Shown here: piece by piece, positions 15,695-63,193 of the stretch
Layout of the letters: every line of letters begins with the position of its first letter
Numbering within the stretch: position 1 is the stretch's first letter
NCBI GenBank assembly: GCA_016176405.1
Contig: JACOXG010000012.1
Span: 2,217 to 66,216 of the forward strand
Direction: 5' to 3'
DNA length: 64,000 nt
Origin: Candidatus Daviesbacteria bacterium
GTDB taxonomy: Bacteria > Patescibacteriota > Microgenomatia > Daviesbacterales > UBA10151
Translations under genes and position numbers: made by a program
The notes under the pieces: model-generated
Told to the model about the DNA's origin: nothing
Database searches by the model: none
What the model saw: only the letters and a program-made list of their open reading frames with translations

Positions 15695-16002
15695 AGGTGA
15701 AAATTAAAAAGGGAGATAAAGTCAAAATTTTATTAGGTAAAGATCGGGGAAAAGAGGGTACTGTTGAGTATGTCATGGCTAAGGATCAAAAGGTATTTGT
15801 AGGAGGGGCGAATATCTATAAAAGACATGTTAGGAAAATGGGTAACAGAGAGGGGGGTATTATTGATCTGCCTAAACCCTTGGATGTTTCTAATGTGGCC
15901 CTAATTTGCCCAAATTGCAAAAAGGTGACCAGGGTAGGTTTTAAAATGGTGGATAATGAGAAATCAAGAATTTGTAGAAAATGTGGAAAGGAGTTTAAAT
16001 GA
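15688..16002 (+). CDS. rplX: 50S ribosomal protein L24 with a C-terminal C4 zinc-ribbon
   Basis: [22 protein letters not shown] (KOW motif) followed by CPNC...CRKC. Confidence 0.88.
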
Positions 16003-16020
16003 GTTGAGCGGACTCATGAA

Positions 16021-16090
16021 GGAGATCCTTCGACTCGCTTCGCTCGCTCAGGATGACAACAAAAGTTTAGAAATTATACTTTTGTTGTCA
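16021..16090 (+). repeat. family-1 palindromic repeat element, copy 1 (intergenic rplX-rplE)
   Basis: ggagatccttcgactcgcttcgctcgctcaggatgaca + hairpin TGACAACAAAAGT-ttagaaattata-ACTTTTGTTGTCA. It ends 1 nt before the rplE start. See 22077-22181 and 47786-47854. Confidence 0.8.
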
Positions 16091-16091
16091 A

Positions 16092-16637
16092 ATGACCATG
16101 AACAGACTTAAAGACAAATATCTAAAAGAAGTACAGGCTAAATTACAACAAGAACTGGGACTAAAGAACAGATTGGCCATACCCCGTTTGGATAAGATAG
16201 TCATCAGTATAGGTCTGGGAGAGGCCAAAGACAACAGTGGCATTTTAGATAAAGTTAAAATTTATTTGGCTGCTCTGGTTGGACAACAACCTGTTATAAC
16301 TTATGCTAAAAAATCTGTTGCTACTTTTAAAGTTTCTAAAGGTCAACCTATTGGGATGATGGTGACTTTAAGAGGTGATAAAATGTTTGCCTTCTTGGAT
16401 AAGTTAATTAATATTGTTTTACCCAAGGTGAGAGATTTTAAAGGTATCTCGGAAAAGTCCTTTGATACTCAAGGGAATTTAAATATTGGACTAAAAGAAC
16501 AGATTATTTTTCCTGAGGTAGATTATAAAGCAATTGATAAAGTGAGAGGTCTGGCTGTTACCATTACCAGCACTGCCAAAAATAAAGAGGAAGGGAGAAA
16601 ACTTTTAGAGGCATTGGGAATGCCGTTTAGGAGTTAA
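16092..16637 (+). CDS. rplE: 50S ribosomal protein L5
   Basis: [42 protein letters not shown]...[31 protein letters not shown] matches L5. Confidence 0.93.
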
Positions 16638-18654: not shown

Positions 18655-19085
18655 AACTACATGAGGTAATCAAAGTAACTAGTAAACCTAAAAAACGTCT
18701 TGGCCGGGGGATAGGTTCTGGTAGAGGCAAAACTGCTGGTCGGGGCACCAAAGGACAAAAGGCGCGAGGCAAAATCCCTTTAAGATTTGCCGGTGGTTTA
18801 TCTTTATATAAAAAATTACCCTTAAGAAGAGGTTTGGGTAATCCTAAGCGCTCCCCTAGATATCATCTAATCACACTGAGCGATTTAAATTCATTTAAAA
18901 ATAAAGAAGTGGTGGGGATTGATGAACTGATCAAATCCAAAATAGTCAGTTCCAAAGAAGCAAAAAAGGGTGTTAAAGTTTTAGGAGTTGGAGAGATTAA
19001 AACCTCTTTAACTGTTAGACTGCCAGTGTCAAAAAGCGCCCAGGAAAAGATTGAGAAAAAAGGAGGCAAGATTGAATATGCCTAG
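18651..19085 (+). CDS. rplO: 50S ribosomal protein L15
   Basis: [40 protein letters not shown] matches L15. Confidence 0.92.
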
Positions 19086-20373
19086 TATATTACAACCAAT
19101 TTTAACTGCTTTTAAAATTGCCGAACTAAGAAGAAAAATTTTTATCACTATTTTGATTGTGGTAATTTTCAGAATTGTGGCTCATATTCCTGTTTCAGGA
19201 ATTGATTTGGTGGGACTGCAAGCGCTGTTTGCTTCTAATCAACTGCTAGGGCTTTTAGATATTTTCTCAGGTGGTACTTTGGTCAACTTTTCAGTAATTT
19301 CTTTAGGGCTTAATCCCTACATTAATGCTTCTATCATCATGCAACTTTTAACCATGATTATGCCCAAGCTGGAAGCTTTATCCAAAGAGGGAGAATATGG
19401 CAGACAAATTATTACTCAATACACCAGATATTTGACAATACCTTTGGCAGCTATTCAATCAATTGGGATGTTTGTACTTTTGAGAAATCAGGGATTACTA
19501 CCGGAAGTTTTACCTATTCAGATTGCGGCAATTGTGGTAGGGATGACTGCGGGAACTATTTTTTTAATGTGGTTAGGGGAACTTATCACTGAATATGGAA
19601 TTGGTAATGGCATTTCACTTTTAATTTTTGCAGGAATTGTCACCAGAATTCCAGTTGTTTTGACCCAGACTGCCACAGTTTTTGACCAGACTCAACTGTT
19701 TAACATTTTACTTTTTGCCATCTTTTCTATTTTGGTGATTGCCGCAGTGGTTTTTATTAATGAAGGCAGAAGACAAATTGCCGTGCATTATGCCAGAAGA
19801 TTTATGAGCGGTCGAGAGGGTATTGGTGATAAGACTTATTTGCCACTACGAGTTAATCAAGCTGGAGTCATCCCAATTATTTTTGCTGTTTCTTTGGTAT
19901 TAATCCCCTCGTTTGCAGGATCATATCTTGCTCAACTTCCCACCACTCAACTTAATTTTTTGGGAAGATGGCTCTCTCAAAACTTTACCCCCGATGGCTT
20001 CACTTATAATTTAGTTTACTTTTTATTAGTAGTTGGTTTTACCTTCTTTTATACGGCAGTCATTTTTAATCCGGCTAAAGTTTCTGAGGAAATTAAAAAA
20101 TATGGCGGATTTATACCCGGTATCAGACCGGGTACCCAGACAGCTGCTTTTCTAAGTTATATTATGGTCAGAATTACCTTGGCAGGAGCTTTATTTTTGG
20201 GCGCAATCGCCATCCTACCTTCAATTGCGGCTGGTCTGACTGGGGTAACAACTTTAATTTTAGGAGGAACAGGGCTTTTGATTGTGGTGTCAGTGATTAT
20301 GGATACTGCTAAACAATTTGAAAGTAAACTTGTGGAGAAAAGTTATGAAGTTTTTGCCAGAAGAAGGTTATAA
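19078..20373 (+). CDS. secY: preprotein translocase subunit SecY
   Basis: The ATG at 19078 lies 10 nt after an AAAGGAGG SD and overlaps the rplO stop. [26 protein letters not shown]. Ten TM segments. Plug motif [27 protein letters not shown]. Confidence 0.92.
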
Positions 20374-20406
20374 GGACTAAAGTCTTTGCGATCCTTCGGA
20401 TCTAAA

Positions 20407-20468
20407 GGACCTGCTCGCACTTCACTATGGAATATTATAGTTCGTGCTCGCAGAACCTTGCCTTTTTA
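20407..20468 (+). repeat. family-2 hairpin repeat, copy B (intergenic secY-adk)
   Basis: ggacctgCTCGCACTTCACtatggaatattataGTTCGTGCTCGCAGaaccttgccttttt. Matches 13062-13116 and the reverse complement of 49591-49645. Confidence 0.7.
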
Positions 20469-21825: not shown

Positions 21826-22068
21826 ATGATACAAGATGTAATTGAAATAGAGGGTAAGGTTGTGGAAGTTTTACCTAATACTTTATTTAGAGTTGAAATT
21901 GAGGAAAGTCGCGATCTGCCTGAACTGGTAGGCAGAGTCATCTTGTGTCATATATCAGGCAAGATGAGAATGCACTATATTAGGCTTTTGGAAGGAGATA
22001 AAGTTAGAATAGAGATGAGTCCGAAATATGATTTGGATAAAGGAAGGATAACATTTAGAATAAAGTGA
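21826..22068 (+). CDS. infA: translation initiation factor IF-1 (with a ~12-aa internal insertion)
   Basis: [18 protein letters not shown]...[36 protein letters not shown]. An [12 protein letters not shown] insertion lies in the S1-like fold. Confidence 0.88.
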
Positions 22069-22076
22069 CACGAAGT

Positions 22077-22181
22077 GTCATCCTGAACGAAGTGAAGGAT
22101 CTGATTACGAGGGAGATCCTTCGACTCGCTTCGCTCGCTCAGGATGACAGAAAAATTTAAGAAATTATAATTTTTCTGTCA
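22077..22181 (+). repeat. family-1 palindromic repeat element, copy 2 (intergenic infA-rpmJ), long form with extra inverted arm
   Basis: tgtcatcctgaacgaagtgaaggatc ...gatccttcgactcgcttcgctcgctcaggatgaca + hairpin TGACAGAAAAATT-taagaaattata-AATTTTTCTGTCA. Confidence 0.8.
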
Positions 22182-22188
22182 ACTAACA

Positions 22189-22305
22189 ATGAAAGTACAA
22201 GCAAGTATTAAAACAAGATGTAAGTTTTGCAAAATCGTTAAACGCGAGGGTATCTTGTACGTGATCTGTCCAAGAGATCCAAGACACAAGCAGAGACAAG
22301 GATAA
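22189..22305 (+). CDS. rpmJ: 50S ribosomal protein L36
   Basis: Manual translation gives [38 protein letters not shown] (38 aa). It is below the ORF-track cutoff. Canonical position between infA and rpsM. Confidence 0.88.
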
Positions 22306-22340
22306 AATACTTGTCCTGAGCGACTGAAAGGAGTCGAAGG

Positions 22341-22802
22341 ATGGCTAGAATTGCAGGAGTTGATTTACCAGAAAATAAAAGAGTTGATATTGGTTTAACC
22401 TATATCTTTGGGATAGGTAGATCCAATGTGATTCAGATTATAAAAAAAACAGGTATTGATGAAACAAAAAGAGTAAAAGATTTAACAGAGGAAGAAATTA
22501 ATAAATTACAAAAGGCTGTTGAGGAATTTAAAGTAGAGGGAGATTTATCCAGAGAAATTGAGCAAAATATTAAGAGATTAGAAGAAACTGGAAGCTATAG
22601 GGGAATCAGACATAGAAGGGGATTACCTGTCAGAGGGCAAAGGACTAAATCTAATGCTAGAACAAAACGAGGTAAAAGAAAAACAGTTGGGACAGTCAGG
22701 AAAGAGGCTGCGGCCAAAATGGGCGCTCCATCTGTTGTAGCTGGACCGACTAAAGAGGCTCAACCTCAAGTGAGCAAAGAAGTGGCCAAGGAAGGGGTAT
22801 AA
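22341..22802 (+). CDS. rpsM: 30S ribosomal protein S13 with a C-terminal extension
   Basis: [30 protein letters not shown]...[24 protein letters not shown] matches S13. The RBS and ATG are embedded in a family-1 repeat arm. Confidence 0.92.
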
Positions 22803-26129: not shown

Positions 26130-27542
26130 ATGGATTTACCCCCTGAGAAGATTTTTAAAAGTTATGATATTAGAGGAATTTATCCTGATCAGTTAAATGA
26201 ACAATTTGCCATCCCCATTACCAAAGCCATTTATAAACTTATTTCTGATCAACTAAATACCACTAAACCTCTCACTATTGCCGTAGGACGTGATATGAGA
26301 TTATCTTCTCCTGCTATTTTTGAGGCAGTTTCTAAAACTTTGGTGGAATTAGGTACAGAAGTGATTGATTTAGGAATTGTTTCCACCCCCACTTTTTATT
26401 TTGCAGTTTATAAATTTGGATATGACGGTGGGATTCAAATCACTGCCTCGCATAATCCCAAAGAGTATAACGGTTTAAAGATTGTTAGAAAATCGAAAAG
26501 TGGACTTATCAAAATTGGTAAAAATACTGGTATGGAAGATATTAAGAAAATGAGTAGAGAAGGGGTGGATATTGTTGCTCGAGGAAAAGGCAGTATTACC
26601 AAAAAAGAAGGGGTAGCTGAAGAAGAGGTACAAAATGCTTTAAAAATTGCAGGCTATCCTAATATTAAAAAATTTAAAATTGTGGCGGATGCAGCAAATG
26701 CCTTAGGAGCTTTATATATTGATGCTTTATTTAAAGCTATCCCTGGGGATTTAATAAAAATGAATTTTGAGCTAGATGGTACTTTTCCAGCTCACCCGGC
26801 AGATCCACTTATACCAGAAACTTTAAAAGATTTACAAAAAAAAGTTTTGGAGGAAAAAGCAGATTTTGGACTGGCCCCGGATGGAGATGGGGACAGATTA
26901 ATTTTTATTGATGAAAAAGGCCAAATCATTCCTGCCTCTTTGATCACTGCTTTGGTGGCCAAAGAGATACTATCCGAGAAAAAAGGGGAAACTATTCTTT
27001 TTGATATTCGCTATATTTTAACTCCTAAAAAAATTGTTGAGGAATACCAAGGTAAATATGAAATTACCAAAGTGGGACATGCTTTTATTACAGAAAAAAT
27101 GCACCAAACAGGTGGGATTTTTGCCGGTGAATCATCCGCCCATTATTTTTTTAGAGAGACTGGTAATGCTGAATCACAACTACCAATAATTTTAATAGTT
27201 CTTAAAGTAATGAGCCGCGAAAATAAATTAATTTCAGAGATTGTCGGATCGCTAAAGAGGAGTCATGAATCAGGGGAGATTAATTTCAGGGTGAAAAATG
27301 GCTTGGAAATAATCGAGGCTTTAAAGGAGAAATATTCGGATGCAGAAATTAGTGAATTGGATGGGATAGCAGTATCTTATAAAGACTGGCGATTTTCCAT
27401 TAGAACATCTAACACCGAACCATTGCTTCGTCTTAATGTTGAACATATTGGAAAAGAAGATTTGGAGGGTAAAACTCAAGAGATAATTGAGGAAATCAAA
27501 AAGCATGCAGTGTTTGAGGGTCCTTCGACAAACTCAGGATGA
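26130..27542 (+). CDS. phosphoglucomutase/phosphomannomutase family protein
   Basis: YDIRGIYP...ITASHNPKEYNGLKIV (active-site Ser)...APDGDGDRLIFID...GESSAHYFF. The last 8 codons and the stop lie inside a family-1 repeat copy. Confidence 0.88.
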   Translation: MDLPPEKIFKSYDIRGIYPDQLNEQFAIPITKAIYKLISDQLNTTKPLTIAVGRDMRLSSPAIFEAVSKTLVELGTEVIDLGIVSTPTFYFAVYKFGYDGGIQITASHNPKEYNGLKIVRKSKSGLIKIGKNTGMEDIKKMSREGVDIVARGKGSITKKEGVAEEEVQNALKIAGYPNIKKFKIVADAANALGALYIDALFKAIPGDLIKMNFELDGTFPAHPADPLIPETLKDLQKKVLEEKADFGLAPDGDGDRLIFIDEKGQIIPASLITALVAKEILSEKKGETILFDIRYILTPKKIVEEYQGKYEITKVGHAFITEKMHQTGGIFAGESSAHYFFRETGNAESQLPIILIVLKVMSRENKLISEIVGSLKRSHESGEINFRVKNGLEIIEALKEKYSDAEISELDGIAVSYKDWRFSIRTSNTEPLLRLNVEHIGKEDLEGKTQEIIEEIKKHAVFEGPSTNSG

Positions 27543-27560
27543 CGAATTAGGAAATTTGTC
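27516..27560 (+). repeat. family-1 repeat element, short copy overlapping the pgm 3' end
   Basis: gagggtccttcgacaaactcaggatgacgaattaggaaatttgtca. Hairpin TGACGAAT/ATTTGTCA. The stop codon TGA lies within the conserved caggaTGAca. Confidence 0.65.
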
Positions 27561-27597
27561 ACTTGCCAAAATAATTTGATTATGATTTAATAATAAA

Positions 27598-47233: not shown

Positions 47234-48226
47234 GTGAATACTAAAATATTAACTATTTTAGGTCCTACTGCAACAGGTAAAACTGACCTAGCCTTAATGG
47301 TGGCAAAAAAATTTAATGGAGAGATTATTTCTTGTGATTCCAGACAAGTTTATAAGGGCTTGGATATCGGCACGGGAAAAATGCCAAATGCCAAATTACA
47401 AATTACAAAAGGAGATAGCTTTTGGGAAATAAACAGCATAAAAGTTTGGATGTATGATATGGTGGATCCAAAAAAAATATATTCTGTGGCGGATTATGTT
47501 AAAGATGCAAATAGGGTAATTGGGGAAATTAAGGATAGAGGAAAGTTGCCAATTATAGTTGGAGGTACAGGACTTTATTTAAGAGCCTTACTGGAAGGAT
47601 TAGATAGTCTTTCAATACCAATTGATAAAAAATTAAGAACTGAGCTACAAAAACTTTCATTAGTTGAGCTTCAAGAAAAATTACAGGAGGTAGATGCTAA
47701 AAAATGGAAGAAAATGAATGACTCTGACAGACAGAACCCAAGAAGGTTGGTAAGAGCTATTGAATTGGCTTTGTCAAATCATGTGGGAGATCCTTCGGTC
47801 GCTACGCTCCCTCAGGATGACAAACTGCGTTTAGAGATTATACGCAGTTTGTCAAATGTGCTAAAGGTTGGTCTAACTGCGCCAAGAGATGTCCTTTATA
47901 AAAGAGTTGATGAGCATGTGGTTTTTAGAATTAACCAAGGCATGATTGATGAGGCAAAAAGACTTTATAAAAATAGTTTAAGTTTAAAAAGGATGAGACA
48001 GCTTGGTTTGGAATATGGAGTTTTGGCAGATTATTTAGAGGAAAAAATTAAAAGTAAAGAGGGCCTAATTAAAATCTTGCAGCATAAAATTCATGGCTAT
48101 GTCAGACGTCAACTGACTTGGTTTAAAAAAGAAAAAGAGGTAAATTGGTTTGATATTTCTGATCAAGATTATATTAAGAAAATAGAAAAATTAGTCAGCA
48201 TTTGGTATGATCAATCCATAGAATGA
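47234..48226 (+). CDS. miaA: tRNA dimethylallyltransferase, carrying an in-frame family-1 repeat insertion
   Basis: LTILGPTATGKTDLALMVAKKFNGEIISCDSRQVYKGLDIGTGK P-loop. Residues GDPSVATLPQDDKLRLEIIRSLSN are encoded by repeat copy 3. Confidence 0.88.
   Translation: MNTKILTILGPTATGKTDLALMVAKKFNGEIISCDSRQVYKGLDIGTGKMPNAKLQITKGDSFWEINSIKVWMYDMVDPKKIYSVADYVKDANRVIGEIKDRGKLPIIVGGTGLYLRALLEGLDSLSIPIDKKLRTELQKLSLVELQEKLQEVDAKKWKKMNDSDRQNPRRLVRAIELALSNHVGDPSVATLPQDDKLRLEIIRSLSNVLKVGLTAPRDVLYKRVDEHVVFRINQGMIDEAKRLYKNSLSLKRMRQLGLEYGVLADYLEEKIKSKEGLIKILQHKIHGYVRRQLTWFKKEKEVNWFDISDQDYIKKIEKLVSIWYDQSIE
47786..47854 (+). repeat. family-1 palindromic repeat element, copy 3, in-frame inside miaA
   Basis: ggagatccttcggtcgctacgctccctcaggatgaca + hairpin TGACAAACTGCGT-ttagagattata-ACGCAGTTTGTCA. 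The stem is fully compensated relative to copies 1 and 2. Confidence 0.8.
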
Positions 48227-49206: not shown

Positions 49207-49565
49207 GCCTAGGAAGAAGGATGATCACCCCGCACCAATCTGGTGCGGGGAGGAAAGTCCAGACAGCACAGGGCAGGGTGGTTCGGGTAACCGGACTCGG
49301 GTAACCGCAAGTAAAGAGTAACAGAGACGATCTGGGTGACGCCAGGTGAAACGACCAAGTGACTGGGTATTCGATAAGCAAAGGGCTATCAGTCCTGAGC
49401 GAAGTCGAAGGACAATCCTCCCCGCTGCAATCCTAGAAACAATCGAGCTGCTCGCTCAATGATTGAAGTCAGGAGCAGTCGCCTAAGGCGACTCAGGATG
49501 ACAAAAATCATACTGAAGATAAATGATCATCTAGAAACAGAATCTGGCTTACTTTTTTCCTAGGC
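49207..49565 (+). ncRNA. rnpB: RNase P RNA (bacterial type A-like)
   Basis: P1 GCCTAGGAAG...CTTTTTTCCTAGGC. P3 CCCCGCACC-aatc-GGTGCGGGG. P4 GGAAAGTCC. ACAGGGCAGGGTG. ...ACAGAATCTGGCTTAC 3' P4 strand. Contains a ~130-nt segment with family-1-like arms. Confidence 0.75.
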
Positions 49566-49590
49566 AATTTTTTTGCCGACGGAAAAAAGC

Positions 49591-49645
49591 AAAGTTCTGC
49601 GAGCGTGAAGTAAAATATTTAATACTGAAGCGCGAGCAGGTCTTT
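49591..49645 (-). repeat. family-2 hairpin repeat, copy C (minus orientation, downstream of rnpB)
   Basis: The reverse complement aaagacctgctcgcgcttcagtattaaatattttacttcacgctcgcagaactttgc aligns with copies A and B. Confidence 0.65.
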
Positions 49646-61801: not shown

Positions 61802-63193
61802 ATGAAGATGAAAAACCGTACCCTTATCCTAGATTGCACTAAAAAAATTGGGGAGAATGTCACCATTTATGGGTATATTCAAACCAGGAGAGACCATGGA
61901 AAAATTTTATTTTTGGATGTTTTAGATAGATCAGGCTTAATTCAGGTGGTAGTTTCCAAAGGTGCACACCTCCGAGGTGTGGGCCAGACGGAATCTAAGT
62001 CTCACCTCGGAGGTGAAATAAGCCCCCAAGATGTAGTCACAATTTCAGGTAAAGTTAATAAGAGGCCCCCAAATTTAGTTAACAAAAATATTCCCACAGG
62101 TGAAATAGAAATTGCTGCAGAAAAGATTGAGGTTTTATCAAAAGCAGAAGAGTTGCCTTTTGATATGGGAGGTAAAGATTTAGATTTACAACTCCCAACG
62201 CTTCTAGATTATCGTTCACTTACTCTTCGTCATCCTAAAGTTAAACAAATTTTTAAAGTTCAAGCAACAATTTTAGAAGGCTTTCGTAAAATTTCTAAAG
62301 AATTAGGTTGTGTTGAGGTGGTTGTTCCAGAGATTGCTGTATCTTCAACCGAAGGAGGTGCAGAAGTTTTCAAAGTTGATTATTTTGATCATAAGGCATT
62401 CCTTACCCAATCACCACAACTTTATAAACAAATGTTAGTCCCTGTTTTTGAGCGGGTCTTTACAATAGCCCACGCATATCGCGCAGAGCCTTCTGTTACC
62501 ACAAGACACCTGGCAGTTGCAACGCAACTGGATTGTGAGTTTGGATTTGTAGATTTTGAGGAGCTTTTAGATCTTTTGGAAAAAGCTGGTACAGAAACCT
62601 TAAAATTTGCCGAAGCAGAAAGTAAAGATGTATTTAAAGAATGGAATTTGGAAACTATTGCTTTTGGCTCGTCTCGCGGAGCGGGCGAAGCGGGAAAGAT
62701 TCCTAGACTGACCTTAAGAGAAGCCCAGGAGCTAATTTTAAAAGAATTTAAAAGAGATAATACTAAGGAGAAAGATTTAACTCCCCAAGATGAGATAGAT
62801 TTGTGTACATGGGCAAAAAATGTGCACAAGAGTGATTTTGTAACTATTACTCATTTTCCCACTCAAGCCAAACCATTTTATACAATGCCTGATCCAAAAA
62901 ATTCTGAGTACTCATTAAGCTATGATCTTTTATTTAGAGGGGTAGAGGTAATGAGTGGTTCTCAAAGGATTAATGATTATTTTCAACTTGTGGACTCAAT
63001 AAAATCTAGGGGAATGGATCCTAAAAATTTTGAAATGTATCTTCAGGCATTTAAATATGGAATGCCTCCTGAAGGCGGATTTTCTTTTGGGTTAGAGAGA
63101 ATGACAATGCATGTTTTTAAACTTGCCAACATTAGGGAAGCAGCACTTTTTCCCAGAGATATGGAAAGAGTGGATATCAGATTAAATAAATAA
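61802..63193 (+). CDS. class IIb aminoacyl-tRNA synthetase (archaeal/eukaryal-type aspartyl- or asparaginyl-tRNA ligase)
   Basis: N-terminal OB anticodon-binding domain. Motif 2 FRAEPSVTTRHL. Motif 3 GGFSFGLERMTM. 463 aa. Confidence 0.8.
   Translation: MKMKNRTLILDCTKKIGENVTIYGYIQTRRDHGKILFLDVLDRSGLIQVVVSKGAHLRGVGQTESKSHLGGEISPQDVVTISGKVNKRPPNLVNKNIPTGEIEIAAEKIEVLSKAEELPFDMGGKDLDLQLPTLLDYRSLTLRHPKVKQIFKVQATILEGFRKISKELGCVEVVVPEIAVSSTEGGAEVFKVDYFDHKAFLTQSPQLYKQMLVPVFERVFTIAHAYRAEPSVTTRHLAVATQLDCEFGFVDFEELLDLLEKAGTETLKFAEAESKDVFKEWNLETIAFGSSRGAGEAGKIPRLTLREAQELILKEFKRDNTKEKDLTPQDEIDLCTWAKNVHKSDFVTITHFPTQAKPFYTMPDPKNSEYSLSYDLLFRGVEVMSGSQRINDYFQLVDSIKSRGMDPKNFEMYLQAFKYGMPPEGGFSFGLERMTMHVFKLANIREAALFPRDMERVDIRLNK

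Follow-up and report, generated by a model that had tools for sequence, protein, structure and literature searches.

A dispersed two-hairpin repeat, probably translated within the MiaA linker of a Candidatus Daviesbacteria genome

How does a palindromic repeat come to be read as part of a housekeeping enzyme, and what keeps it there? This question is raised by the tRNA dimethylallyltransferase gene miaA in a 64,000-nucleotide stretch of DNA (the window; positions 2,217 to 66,216 of contig JACOXG010000012.1, assembly GCA_016176405.1) from Candidatus Daviesbacteria (Microgenomates), a member of the Candidate Phyla Radiation (CPR). The gene (47234..48226, plus strand) was listed as an uninterrupted open reading frame (ORF) of 330 amino acids (aa), the product of which matches the Pfam family IPPT (E = 3.5e-52) and shows 100% identity to a Candidatus Daviesbacteria protein labelled MiaA at NCBI. 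An initial annotation of the window had placed a repeat copy wholly inside this gene, in frame and with the conserved MiaA blocks intact, and the ORF, its translation and the alignment all agree, with unbroken flanks on the N-terminal (NPRRLVRAIE) and C-terminal (LKVGLTAPR) sides. We consider it probable that the segment in between is a copy of a dispersed two-hairpin repeat which is now translated within MiaA. The catalytic blocks being unaffected, MiaA is most likely still functional, and we infer that the repeat copy has no function of its own.

Anatomy and copies of the two-hairpin repeat

Repeat finding identified three full copies of the family in the window (16018-16102, 22109-22193 and 47782-47866), and comparison with the other copies places the miaA copy at about 47773-47857. 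Positions 47786-47857 translate in the miaA frame to GDPSVATLPQDDKLRLEIIRSLSN, which corresponds exactly to the 24 residues of the initial annotation, although the end coordinate given there (47854) stops 3 nucleotides (nt) before the end of this peptide. Copy 1 and the miaA copy have the identical blocks GGAGATCCTTCG, CTCAGGATGACA and TTGTCAAAT in common, and 12 of the 13 nt of the loop (TTTAGARATTATA) are the same in both. When the first 37 nt of the miaA copy were searched for in the window with up to three mismatches, no second match was found, and none was obtained in 100 shuffles; the family is therefore defined by shared blocks and structure rather than by overall identity. The copy starts with a 5' extension, GTCAAATCATGTG (47773..47785, plus strand), which is translated as SNHV and represents a lead-in common to intergenic copies, being found there as TCATGAAGGAGATCC or CTCAAATCATGAAG (window copy 1, L082, L089, L096, L097 and L107).

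The lead-in is followed by two hairpins. Hairpin A (47787..47822, minus strand) is a TGTC-tagged unit of the repetitive extragenic palindromic (REP) type, identified by a pattern census, its fold, the conservation of its outer stem and a covarying scaffold. Its minus strand reads TGTC-ATCCT-GA-GG-GA-GC-GUA-GC-GA-CC-GA-AGGAT-CTC and folds with -30.6 kcal/mol (z = -5.0) into five Watson-Crick pairs (A-T first), tandem G.A mismatches, short GC stems and a GNA-type triloop, the distal GC-rich hairpin being variable and the outer stem ATCCT/AGGAT being kept in 25/25 aligned copies. Hairpin B (47819..47853, plus strand), recognized from folds, a loop search and covariation, has a perfect 11-bp stem (GACAAACTGCG / CGCAGTTTGTC), composed of GACA and seven further nucleotides, and a conserved 13-nt loop (TTTAGAGATTATA) at 47830-47842. 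The three window copies contain three different hairpin B stems, each of which is perfectly complementary. A 3' tail, AAAT (47854..47857, plus strand; codon N208), completes the miaA copy, and GTCAAAT or a one-base variant thereof ends most of the 25 aligned copies.

Metagenome contigs were scanned for further copies with the pattern CAGGATGACA-N6-9-TTWRRARATTRTA, which covers the end of hairpin A as well as the first arm and loop of hairpin B and omits the second arm. The scan returned 30 loci, about 22 of which hold the full element, with hairpin A upstream and a second arm complementary to the first; at least 14 distinct stems are represented. Although outside the search pattern, the second arm is Watson-Crick paired at 11/11 positions in 21 of the 26 family copies scored, and two further copies of these 26 scored lower only through a register error of the script, being well paired in the alignment. 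Across the 25-copy alignment, 98.5% of the hairpin B cells are paired and 7 of the 11 pairs have changed on both sides; double-changed cells number 62 as compared with 19.6 +/- 3.2 in shuffles, 0/500 of which reach 62, and slid controls are only 36-44% paired. The stem sequence of hairpin B varies freely with compensation, and its 13-nt loop is conserved. All copies outside miaA (22/22) are intergenic. Most of them are located within operons, shortly ahead of a start codon. About 13 of these 22 have the same orientation as both neighbouring genes, with 0-26 nt separating their ends from the following start codon; among the others, there are copies antisense to the adjacent genes and copies that come after genes and precede a T-run, resembling a terminator.

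Hairpin A alone was also searched for. An exact scan of IMG/VR with GATCCTTCG-N5-30-CTCAGGATGACA identified at least 182 copies (loci L115-L234) on contigs catalogued as viral with GC contents of 0.34-0.70; among the matches listed, up to six copies occur per 4 kb, and their interiors are variable and self-complementary. A relaxed scaffold (GTCAT-NNN-GAR…YGA-NNN(N)-ATS, in which AT…AT is fixed by the pattern) was searched inside loci already enriched for hairpin A, and its 3-nt stem core is complementary in 312 of 339 matches versus 5.3 expected by chance, with ten stem types including ATCCT, ATTCT, ATTCC, ATCCC, ATTTC, ATGCT and ATTGC. Since this scaffold is common to hundreds of copies with complementary stem cores, hairpin A can be assigned, on the evidence of these sequence patterns, to a very widespread stem-loop superfamily, of which it is one family. 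A degenerate scan of viral contigs for the superfamily as such was swamped by chance matches (8/123 complementary among the matches listed).

Searches against Rfam gave no gathering-threshold match in the whole window except RNase P and one tRNA, and chance-level matches only (E >= 0.16) in 47700-47950, and a full-text literature search with the sequence strings of the element returned unrelated primers only. Readings of hairpin A as a hammerhead or other small ribozyme, a k-turn or a C/D box were rejected because the conserved bases misfit the respective cores (compared by eye only), and that as a DNA uptake sequence because the copy number is far too low. An exact match to the 12-mer CTCAGGATGACA, the 3' half of hairpin A, is located inside the RNase P RNA gene (49483-49505; gene 49209-49567) after a small hairpin (AGTCGCCTAAGGCGACT); approximately 0.01 occurrences of this 12-mer are expected by chance in the window, and it could represent a repeat fragment in a variable RNase P helix. 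Furthermore, a hairpin-A-type unit (AGATCCTTCGCTRCGCTCAGGATGAC) occurs inside an ORF of about 640 codons, on the strand opposite to the ORF, at the same position in two Curtissbacteria (L062:5858 and L076:14489), and thus represents a further intragenic copy that is conserved.

Copy 1 (15996..16100, plus strand; 101.5 bits with the covariance model) lies between the genes for L24 (rplX) and L5 (rplE), both of which were recognized by Pfam, with the L24 stop codon inside the repeat lead-in and the L5 start codon within about 10 nt downstream. Copy 2 (22087..22191, plus strand; 91.1 bits) is situated between infA (IF-1) and rpmJ (L36), where it shortly precedes the L36 start codon, and has a short inverted partner on the minus strand (22056..22129; 25.3 bits, E = 8e-4), which consists of a TGTC unit (22076-22103) and a mini-hairpin (GACACTTCGTGTC) containing the infA stop codon. 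The covariance model used for the window was built from the 25-copy alignment, whereby weak and partial copies were found. These include a degenerate copy (27491..27571, plus strand; 24.8 bits, E = 1e-3) over the 3' end of a PGM/PMM gene, which provides the last residues (…GPSTNSG) and the TGA stop codon of that gene, and a fragment at about 22314-22343 that abuts the start of S13, the start codon and the preceding GGAG being within the partial unit. The window also contains a second repeat family with 63-nt arms in inverted orientation (20405-20467 and 49583-49645; 83% complementary), located just downstream of a secY-sized ORF (19051..20373) and just after the RNase P RNA gene, respectively. 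This family includes GACCTGCTCGCACTTCA…ATATTATAG…GTGCTCGCAGAAC, followed by a T-run.

Palindromes in the MiaA linker

The miaA copy resides in a hypervariable 32-aa linker (47765..47860, plus strand; L178-V209) between RRLVRAIE and LKVGLTAPR, delimited by alignments, a table of linkers from 54 loci and the window, and the predicted local distance difference test (pLDDT). In alignments of Daviesbacteria-type MiaA proteins (35 and 120 sequences), the NPRRLxRAIE-LKIGLTAPR segment is hypervariable in both length and sequence, whereas its flanks are nearly invariant, and the GC content of the window's linker is 0.46 as compared with 0.36 for the entire window. An AlphaFold2 model of MiaA built on the 120-sequence alignment (mean pLDDT 88.6) superposes on the E. 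coli MiaA-tRNA complexes 2zm5 and 3foz with a template modelling (TM) score of 0.70. Residues 181-210 of this model have pLDDT values of 49-64 (below 50 for 184-193) and the flanking elements have values above 90, so that the low-pLDDT segment connects a helix (169-183) with a strand (209-215), both of which are confidently modelled. The initial annotation had anticipated a surface loop, with which the predicted structure is consistent in that the repeat maps to a poorly ordered excursion between confident elements.

Eighty miaA loci were fetched from species-representative genomes, and the linker DNA was read in 54 of them. More distant Daviesbacteria have a baseline linker of 23 aa which is AT-rich (GC 0.18-0.32) and contains the motif L.xM[YN]PYI…KYN[ITV], and the solved MiaA structures 2qgn and 3d3q have 23-24 aa at this position. 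About 28 of the 32 linker residues in the window are repeat-encoded, counting the lead-in TCAAATCATG, which is included because it is also found in intergenic copies. The initial proposal of an insertion of about 23 aa is therefore not supported as such: considering the size of the baseline linker, the repeat replaced an ancestral linker of about 23 aa with a net gain of about 9 aa, instead of having been added to an intact one.

The baseline motif MYPYI corresponds in the DNA to a perfect small palindrome, ATGTATCCATACAT (miaA linkers of L025-L052), the centre of which is flipped in some lineages (ATGTATGGATACAT) and then encodes MYGY. Other plain linkers consist of short tandem repeats resembling TCAAAAC (L019, L028 and L067), GTGAAAA/GTGCAAA (L036) or CTCACAG (L040). 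A second variable spot in MiaA is located at about residues 51-56, right after DIGTGK (alignment columns 69-100), where some orthologues have insertions and where the NLDIGTGK segment is duplicated in P0056 and P0063. In addition, the N-terminal part of miaA holds GC-rich palindromes in two Curtissbacteria loci (L070:10246-10282 and L076:10290-10313).

The two-hairpin element is present at the same miaA site in L001, L002, L111 and L112 (80-91 bits), and L113 and L114 have kept hairpin A and the junctions, with a different short hairpin replacing hairpin B. At least six other Daviesbacteria assemblies therefore contain the element or a derivative at this site, contrary to the initial expectation that it would be unique to one lineage. 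The linkers of L008, L018, L010 and L011 retain GATGACA…TGTCAA with other interiors and probably derive from the window's element as well. A second palindrome family, CACCTCGGAGGAGTCC…CCTCCGAGGTG (also CACCTCGGAGG…CCTCCGAGGTG), occupies the same site in further relatives and is read as SPRRSP…HLRG in L003, L022, L023 and L044 and, through another frame of the first arm, as TSEESLRATxRG in L004, L007, L012 and L033. Its interior is inverted without a change in length in L013, its arms contain compensatory changes in L033 and L044, and further hairpins are nested within the linker palindromes of L003, L012 and L023. Moreover, CGTC-ATTGC units were found in the miaA linkers of L005, L014 and L017, and as inverted pairs in those of L009, L015, L026 and L031. 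On MiaA trees, which have a star-like shape and poor resolution, these linker states are intermixed.

Whole cassettes also differ between closely similar genes. The miaA genes of L004 and L008 (L004:10001-10951 and L008:10001-10957) share mostly 85-100% nucleotide identity outside the linker, whereas their linkers contain different palindromes and are unalignable. Identity is about 87% ahead of the linker and increases to about 99% behind it, and the sequence upstream of miaA is unalignable; this increase across the linker suggests a recombination mosaic with a breakpoint at the linker palindrome. In a rough, post hoc count, 5 of 82 strict GC-rich palindromes fall in the linker, which represents about 0.4% of the searched sequence. 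The MiaA linker is a hotspot for palindromes of different families; protein-level constraint on it is weak, and in Daviesbacteria it is a place where DNA-level events survive.

An in-frame palindrome was also observed in another enzyme encoded in the window. A class II tRNA synthetase ORF (Asp/Asn/Lys-type; 61802..63193) contains CACCTCCGAGGTG…CACCTCGGAGGTG at 61965-62015 in its OB-fold anticodon-binding domain, the Pfam match of which extends over 93 residues for a 75-position profile. This palindrome is unrelated to the two-hairpin repeat and belongs to the same family as those in the miaA linkers of relatives, being read as …AHLRGVGQTESKSHLGGE….

We propose that a repeat which is usually intergenic took the linker position between the helix ending in …RRLVRAIE and the strand LKVGL, displacing nearly all of the original 23 or so residues. 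As the repeat has no stop codon in the miaA frame and the frame was preserved, it would be read through as a poorly ordered 32-aa excursion. The linker would subsequently have been shaped by events at the DNA level, including the capture of several palindrome families, compensatory stem changes, interior inversion and nested insertions, as well as swaps of whole cassettes, probably via recombination between alleles. The element itself may have arrived by REP-like mobilization of a single-stranded hairpin or by recombination.

The opposite direction, in which a conserved MiaA peptide seeded the intergenic copies, has to be considered together with the possibility that the ORF is a misassembled chimera or a pseudogene. 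The closest relatives do have GDPS…QDDKLRL.IIRSLSN in common at the protein level, and repeats can cause assembly errors. However, the linkers of most orthologues are unrelated, and the hairpin is preserved where the peptide is not: hairpin B of the window differs from that of L002 by three double substitutions, each exactly complementary, whereby the peptide KLRLEIIRSLSN becomes NLGLEIIPKLSN. Conservation of the 23 residues as protein in orthologues, which the initial annotation had named as the observation that would count against a repeat insertion, was accordingly looked for and is lacking. Furthermore, the hairpin A scaffold is so widespread (hundreds of copies on unrelated contigs with GC contents of 0.34-0.70) that an origin in miaA is impossible, the same arrangement recurs in at least five independent assemblies, and the ORF is uninterrupted, retains every conserved block and has a confidently modelled fold. 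A coding-side origin or an artefact is already contradicted by the orthologue and superfamily data and is extremely improbable.

Conservation and ancestry of the linker hairpins

Several observations weigh against the interpretation of the miaA segment as a dispersed repeat that was captured and is merely read through. Among the five full carriers, identity at third codon positions is 0.71-0.88 in the linker versus 0.44-0.57 in the rest of miaA, and the first codon after the element (Val) is GTG in 6 of 7 carriers versus 1 of 14 other orthologues with Val (read by eye). In a neighbour-joining tree with a star-like shape and poor resolution, the carriers are not united in one clade, which fits either one old insertion or repeated acquisition. 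The copy number is low (three in 64 kb), and none was found in the miaA flanks (up to 10 kb per side) of other carriers. With regard to mobility, no transposase, convincing target-site duplication or empty-versus-filled polymorphism was found, although no search was made for an autonomous partner or dedicated to REP-associated tyrosine transposases (RAYTs); the term selfish, as applied to the element in the initial annotation, is therefore an assumption. TCAAAT was rejected as a target-site duplication, since its left copy belongs to the lead-in of the element and is also present in the intergenic copy of L089. The third-position conservation of the linker suggests either nucleotide-level constraint or recent exchange, in which case the element may be younger than the surrounding genes owing to allelic exchange, gene conversion or re-insertion.

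Constraint would be expected if the linker hairpins were selected cis-acting nucleic-acid elements, with coding read-through being secondary. Candidate functions are an mRNA structure that pauses or restarts translation, an internal or antisense expression signal, and a site for a structure-specific protein or for recombination. Such a role, which we consider unlikely, would be in line with the conservation of the element above the level of miaA synonymous sites, with hairpin B pairing that is kept perfect through compensatory changes even within an ORF, and with the recurrence of unrelated hairpins at the miaA site in many lineages, the baseline linker itself holding the palindrome ATGTATCCATACAT. 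Nevertheless, many close relatives have linkers without hairpin potential (z near 0, e.g., L016, L020, L021, L028 and L029) and miaA therefore requires no hairpin, and the conservation could equally reflect recent allelic recombination, as the L004/L008 mosaic suggests.

A signal for translation might be indicated by the co-oriented copies (about 13 of 22), which have an initial AAGGAG resembling a Shine-Dalgarno (SD) motif and are located 0-26 nt ahead of the following start codon, and by the in-frame GTG or ATG after the miaA element in 6/7 carriers. However, both orientations relative to the neighbouring genes are found among the intergenic copies, and a C-terminal MiaA fragment starting after the linker would be unlikely to fold alone. 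The idea that folded hairpins bring an SD motif to the start codon, which was based on copies that are co-oriented with the downstream gene, begin with AAGGAG and end about 10 nt before the ATG, was set aside; only 22 of 63 window ORFs have an SD-like motif, so that a missing local SD is uninformative. A signal for transcription could be seen in the minus strand of the loop, which reads TAYAAT, and in a 10/12 promoter-like match at 47864-47837. An antisense promoter was nonetheless rejected, as TTGACA is only 7 nt off the conserved TAYAAT and the usable -35 part is situated in the non-conserved flank. A plus-strand sigma-70 promoter was also rejected, as the putative -10 element has G at position 2 in about half of the copies.

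Recent exchange, on the other hand, would be expected if the linker were a site-specific target at which insertion or gene conversion directs palindromes to a pre-existing palindrome, the carriers having acquired their copies independently and recently. The scattering of carriers in the MiaA tree and the higher conservation of the element relative to the surrounding gene point in this direction, as do the nested palindromes (L003, L012 and L023), the replacement of cassettes between near-identical genes and the frequency of strict GC-rich palindromes in the linker, which is roughly 15 to 36 times that in the rest of the loci, although this estimate is post hoc. As a precedent, different REPs are located at about the same recB site in two Xanthomonas species (PMC3733652). 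Conversely, the star-like tree is compatible with a single origin, all carriers share their left and right junctions, as common descent predicts, and CGTC-type REPs have no known enzyme (PMC3733652). Independent targeting is thus distinctly improbable in our view.

A broader proposition is that the Daviesbacteria MiaA linker serves as a natural landing pad and that REP-type hairpins are retained or renewed there for a reason at the nucleic-acid level, rather than being merely tolerated. It is motivated by the conservation of the element above the synonymous-site level and by the convergence of several unrelated hairpin families on the same 70 or so nucleotides, and it is conceivable, albeit on balance unlikely. 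Alternatively, the hairpins at the linker could be a cis-acting signal embedded in the coding region.

Relation to known palindromic repeats and significance

The translated repeat copy in miaA can be compared with several described types of palindromic elements. The CGTC-tagged REP superfamily includes the Rickettsia palindromic elements (RPEs) RPE-4 and RPE-6 and the Neisseria element dRS3 (Di Nocera, De Gregorio & Rocco 2013, BMC Genomics 14:522; PMC3733652). Its members have an unpaired CGTC or TGTC tag (CCTC also being accepted) at one end, stems that begin with A-T and a short unpaired tail at the other end; they often form inverted dimers, are mostly located between co-directional or convergent genes, with some being intragenic and in frame, and have no dedicated transposase (PMC3733652). 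Published members have 8-9-bp stems, 4-5-nt loops and a 3-nt CCA tail and are known from five phyla, mostly from alpha-Proteobacteria (PMC3733652). Similarly, TGTC (the reverse complement of part of the invariant GATGACA) directly precedes the hairpin A stem in 25/25 copies, the A-T-first stem ATCCT/AGGAT is complementary in all of them, and CGTC precedes the ATTGC units (CGTC-ATTGC…GCAAT) in the linkers of L015, L026 and L031. An inverted pair (22076-22149), paired units in the linkers of relatives and intragenic units were observed. In contrast, the hairpin A stem consists of 5 bp plus tandem G.A, 5 to more than 30 nt separate the conserved halves, and the tail is conserved but reads CTC(C), the reverse complement of GGAG, in place of CCA; moreover, hairpin A is fused to a second hairpin, B, with a conserved loop of its own, and the host is a CPR bacterium. 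The fit, judged on described features, is partial. In view of the shared tag and A-T stem, the comparison with RPEs made in the initial annotation is apt, as the superfamily includes RPE-4 and RPE-6 (PMC3733652). The accompanying statement that such insertions are uncommon outside Rickettsia is overstated, since several phyla have intragenic REPs, some of them in genes for tRNA synthetases and tRNA pseudouridine synthases (PMC3733652).

As in RPEs (Ogata et al. 2000, Science 290:347), a palindrome at a permissive site is in frame and translated within a housekeeping gene. In-frame RPEs were first reported as 44 integrations in unrelated metabolic genes of R. conorii (PMC10969869). RPEs differ, however, in their length of about 150 bp and their family-specific conserved peptide, whereas the miaA element spans about 85 nt, has a low copy number and encodes a peptide that is not conserved among carriers. 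Furthermore, RPEs represent one family in many genes, whereas here one linker is overwritten by different families.

Likenesses to GTAG REPs and bacterial interspersed mosaic elements (BIMEs) comprise the imperfect palindromes, compensatory stem variation, inverted pairs, location within operons or after genes and the supply of stop codons for flanking ORFs. GTAG REP/BIME elements are mobilized by RAYT transposases of the IS200/IS605 type (Y1). In contrast to these, the tag is TGTC, GTAG is present merely as a chance match within the distal loop of the miaA copy, and the copy number is far lower than that of REP-rich genomes; no RAYT gene was seen among the window ORFs scanned against Pfam, although no RAYT-directed search was made. 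MITEs, or miniature inverted-repeat transposable elements, have terminal inverted repeats matching an insertion sequence and generate target-site duplications. Those of the Correia/NEMIS, ERIC, RUP and Nezha type resemble the repeat as small non-coding hairpin repeats near genes that are occasionally fused in frame to ORFs, but the miaA element has two internal hairpins, ends that are not inverted repeats of each other and no demonstrable duplication.

Intragenic, translated palindromes of the REP/RPE type have been described before (PMC3733652, PMC10969869), and the miaA case adds a CPR host; a targeted full-text literature search found no earlier report of such elements in CPR bacteria. The occurrence of translated REP/RPE-type palindromes would thereby be extended to the Candidate Phyla Radiation. 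The MiaA linker of Daviesbacteria, which is shaped by DNA-level repeat dynamics and not by protein selection, constitutes an unusually clear natural experiment in which one enzyme linker has been rewritten many times. Among the outcomes are one palindrome that is translated in two different frames, an interior that is inverted, copies nested in others and cassettes that differ between near-identical genes. In practical terms, the peptides …AQDDK…, …ARND…, SLRG… and SPRRS… in CPR proteins would represent repeat read-through and not conserved motifs. The miaA site may also be used for studying the movement and exchange of CGTC-type REPs, which lack a known transposase. If the linker were indeed a landing pad, it would report on how the transposase-less CGTC/TGTC REP superfamily, which is apparently still widespread in CPR bacteria and on contigs catalogued as viral, is propagated and maintained.

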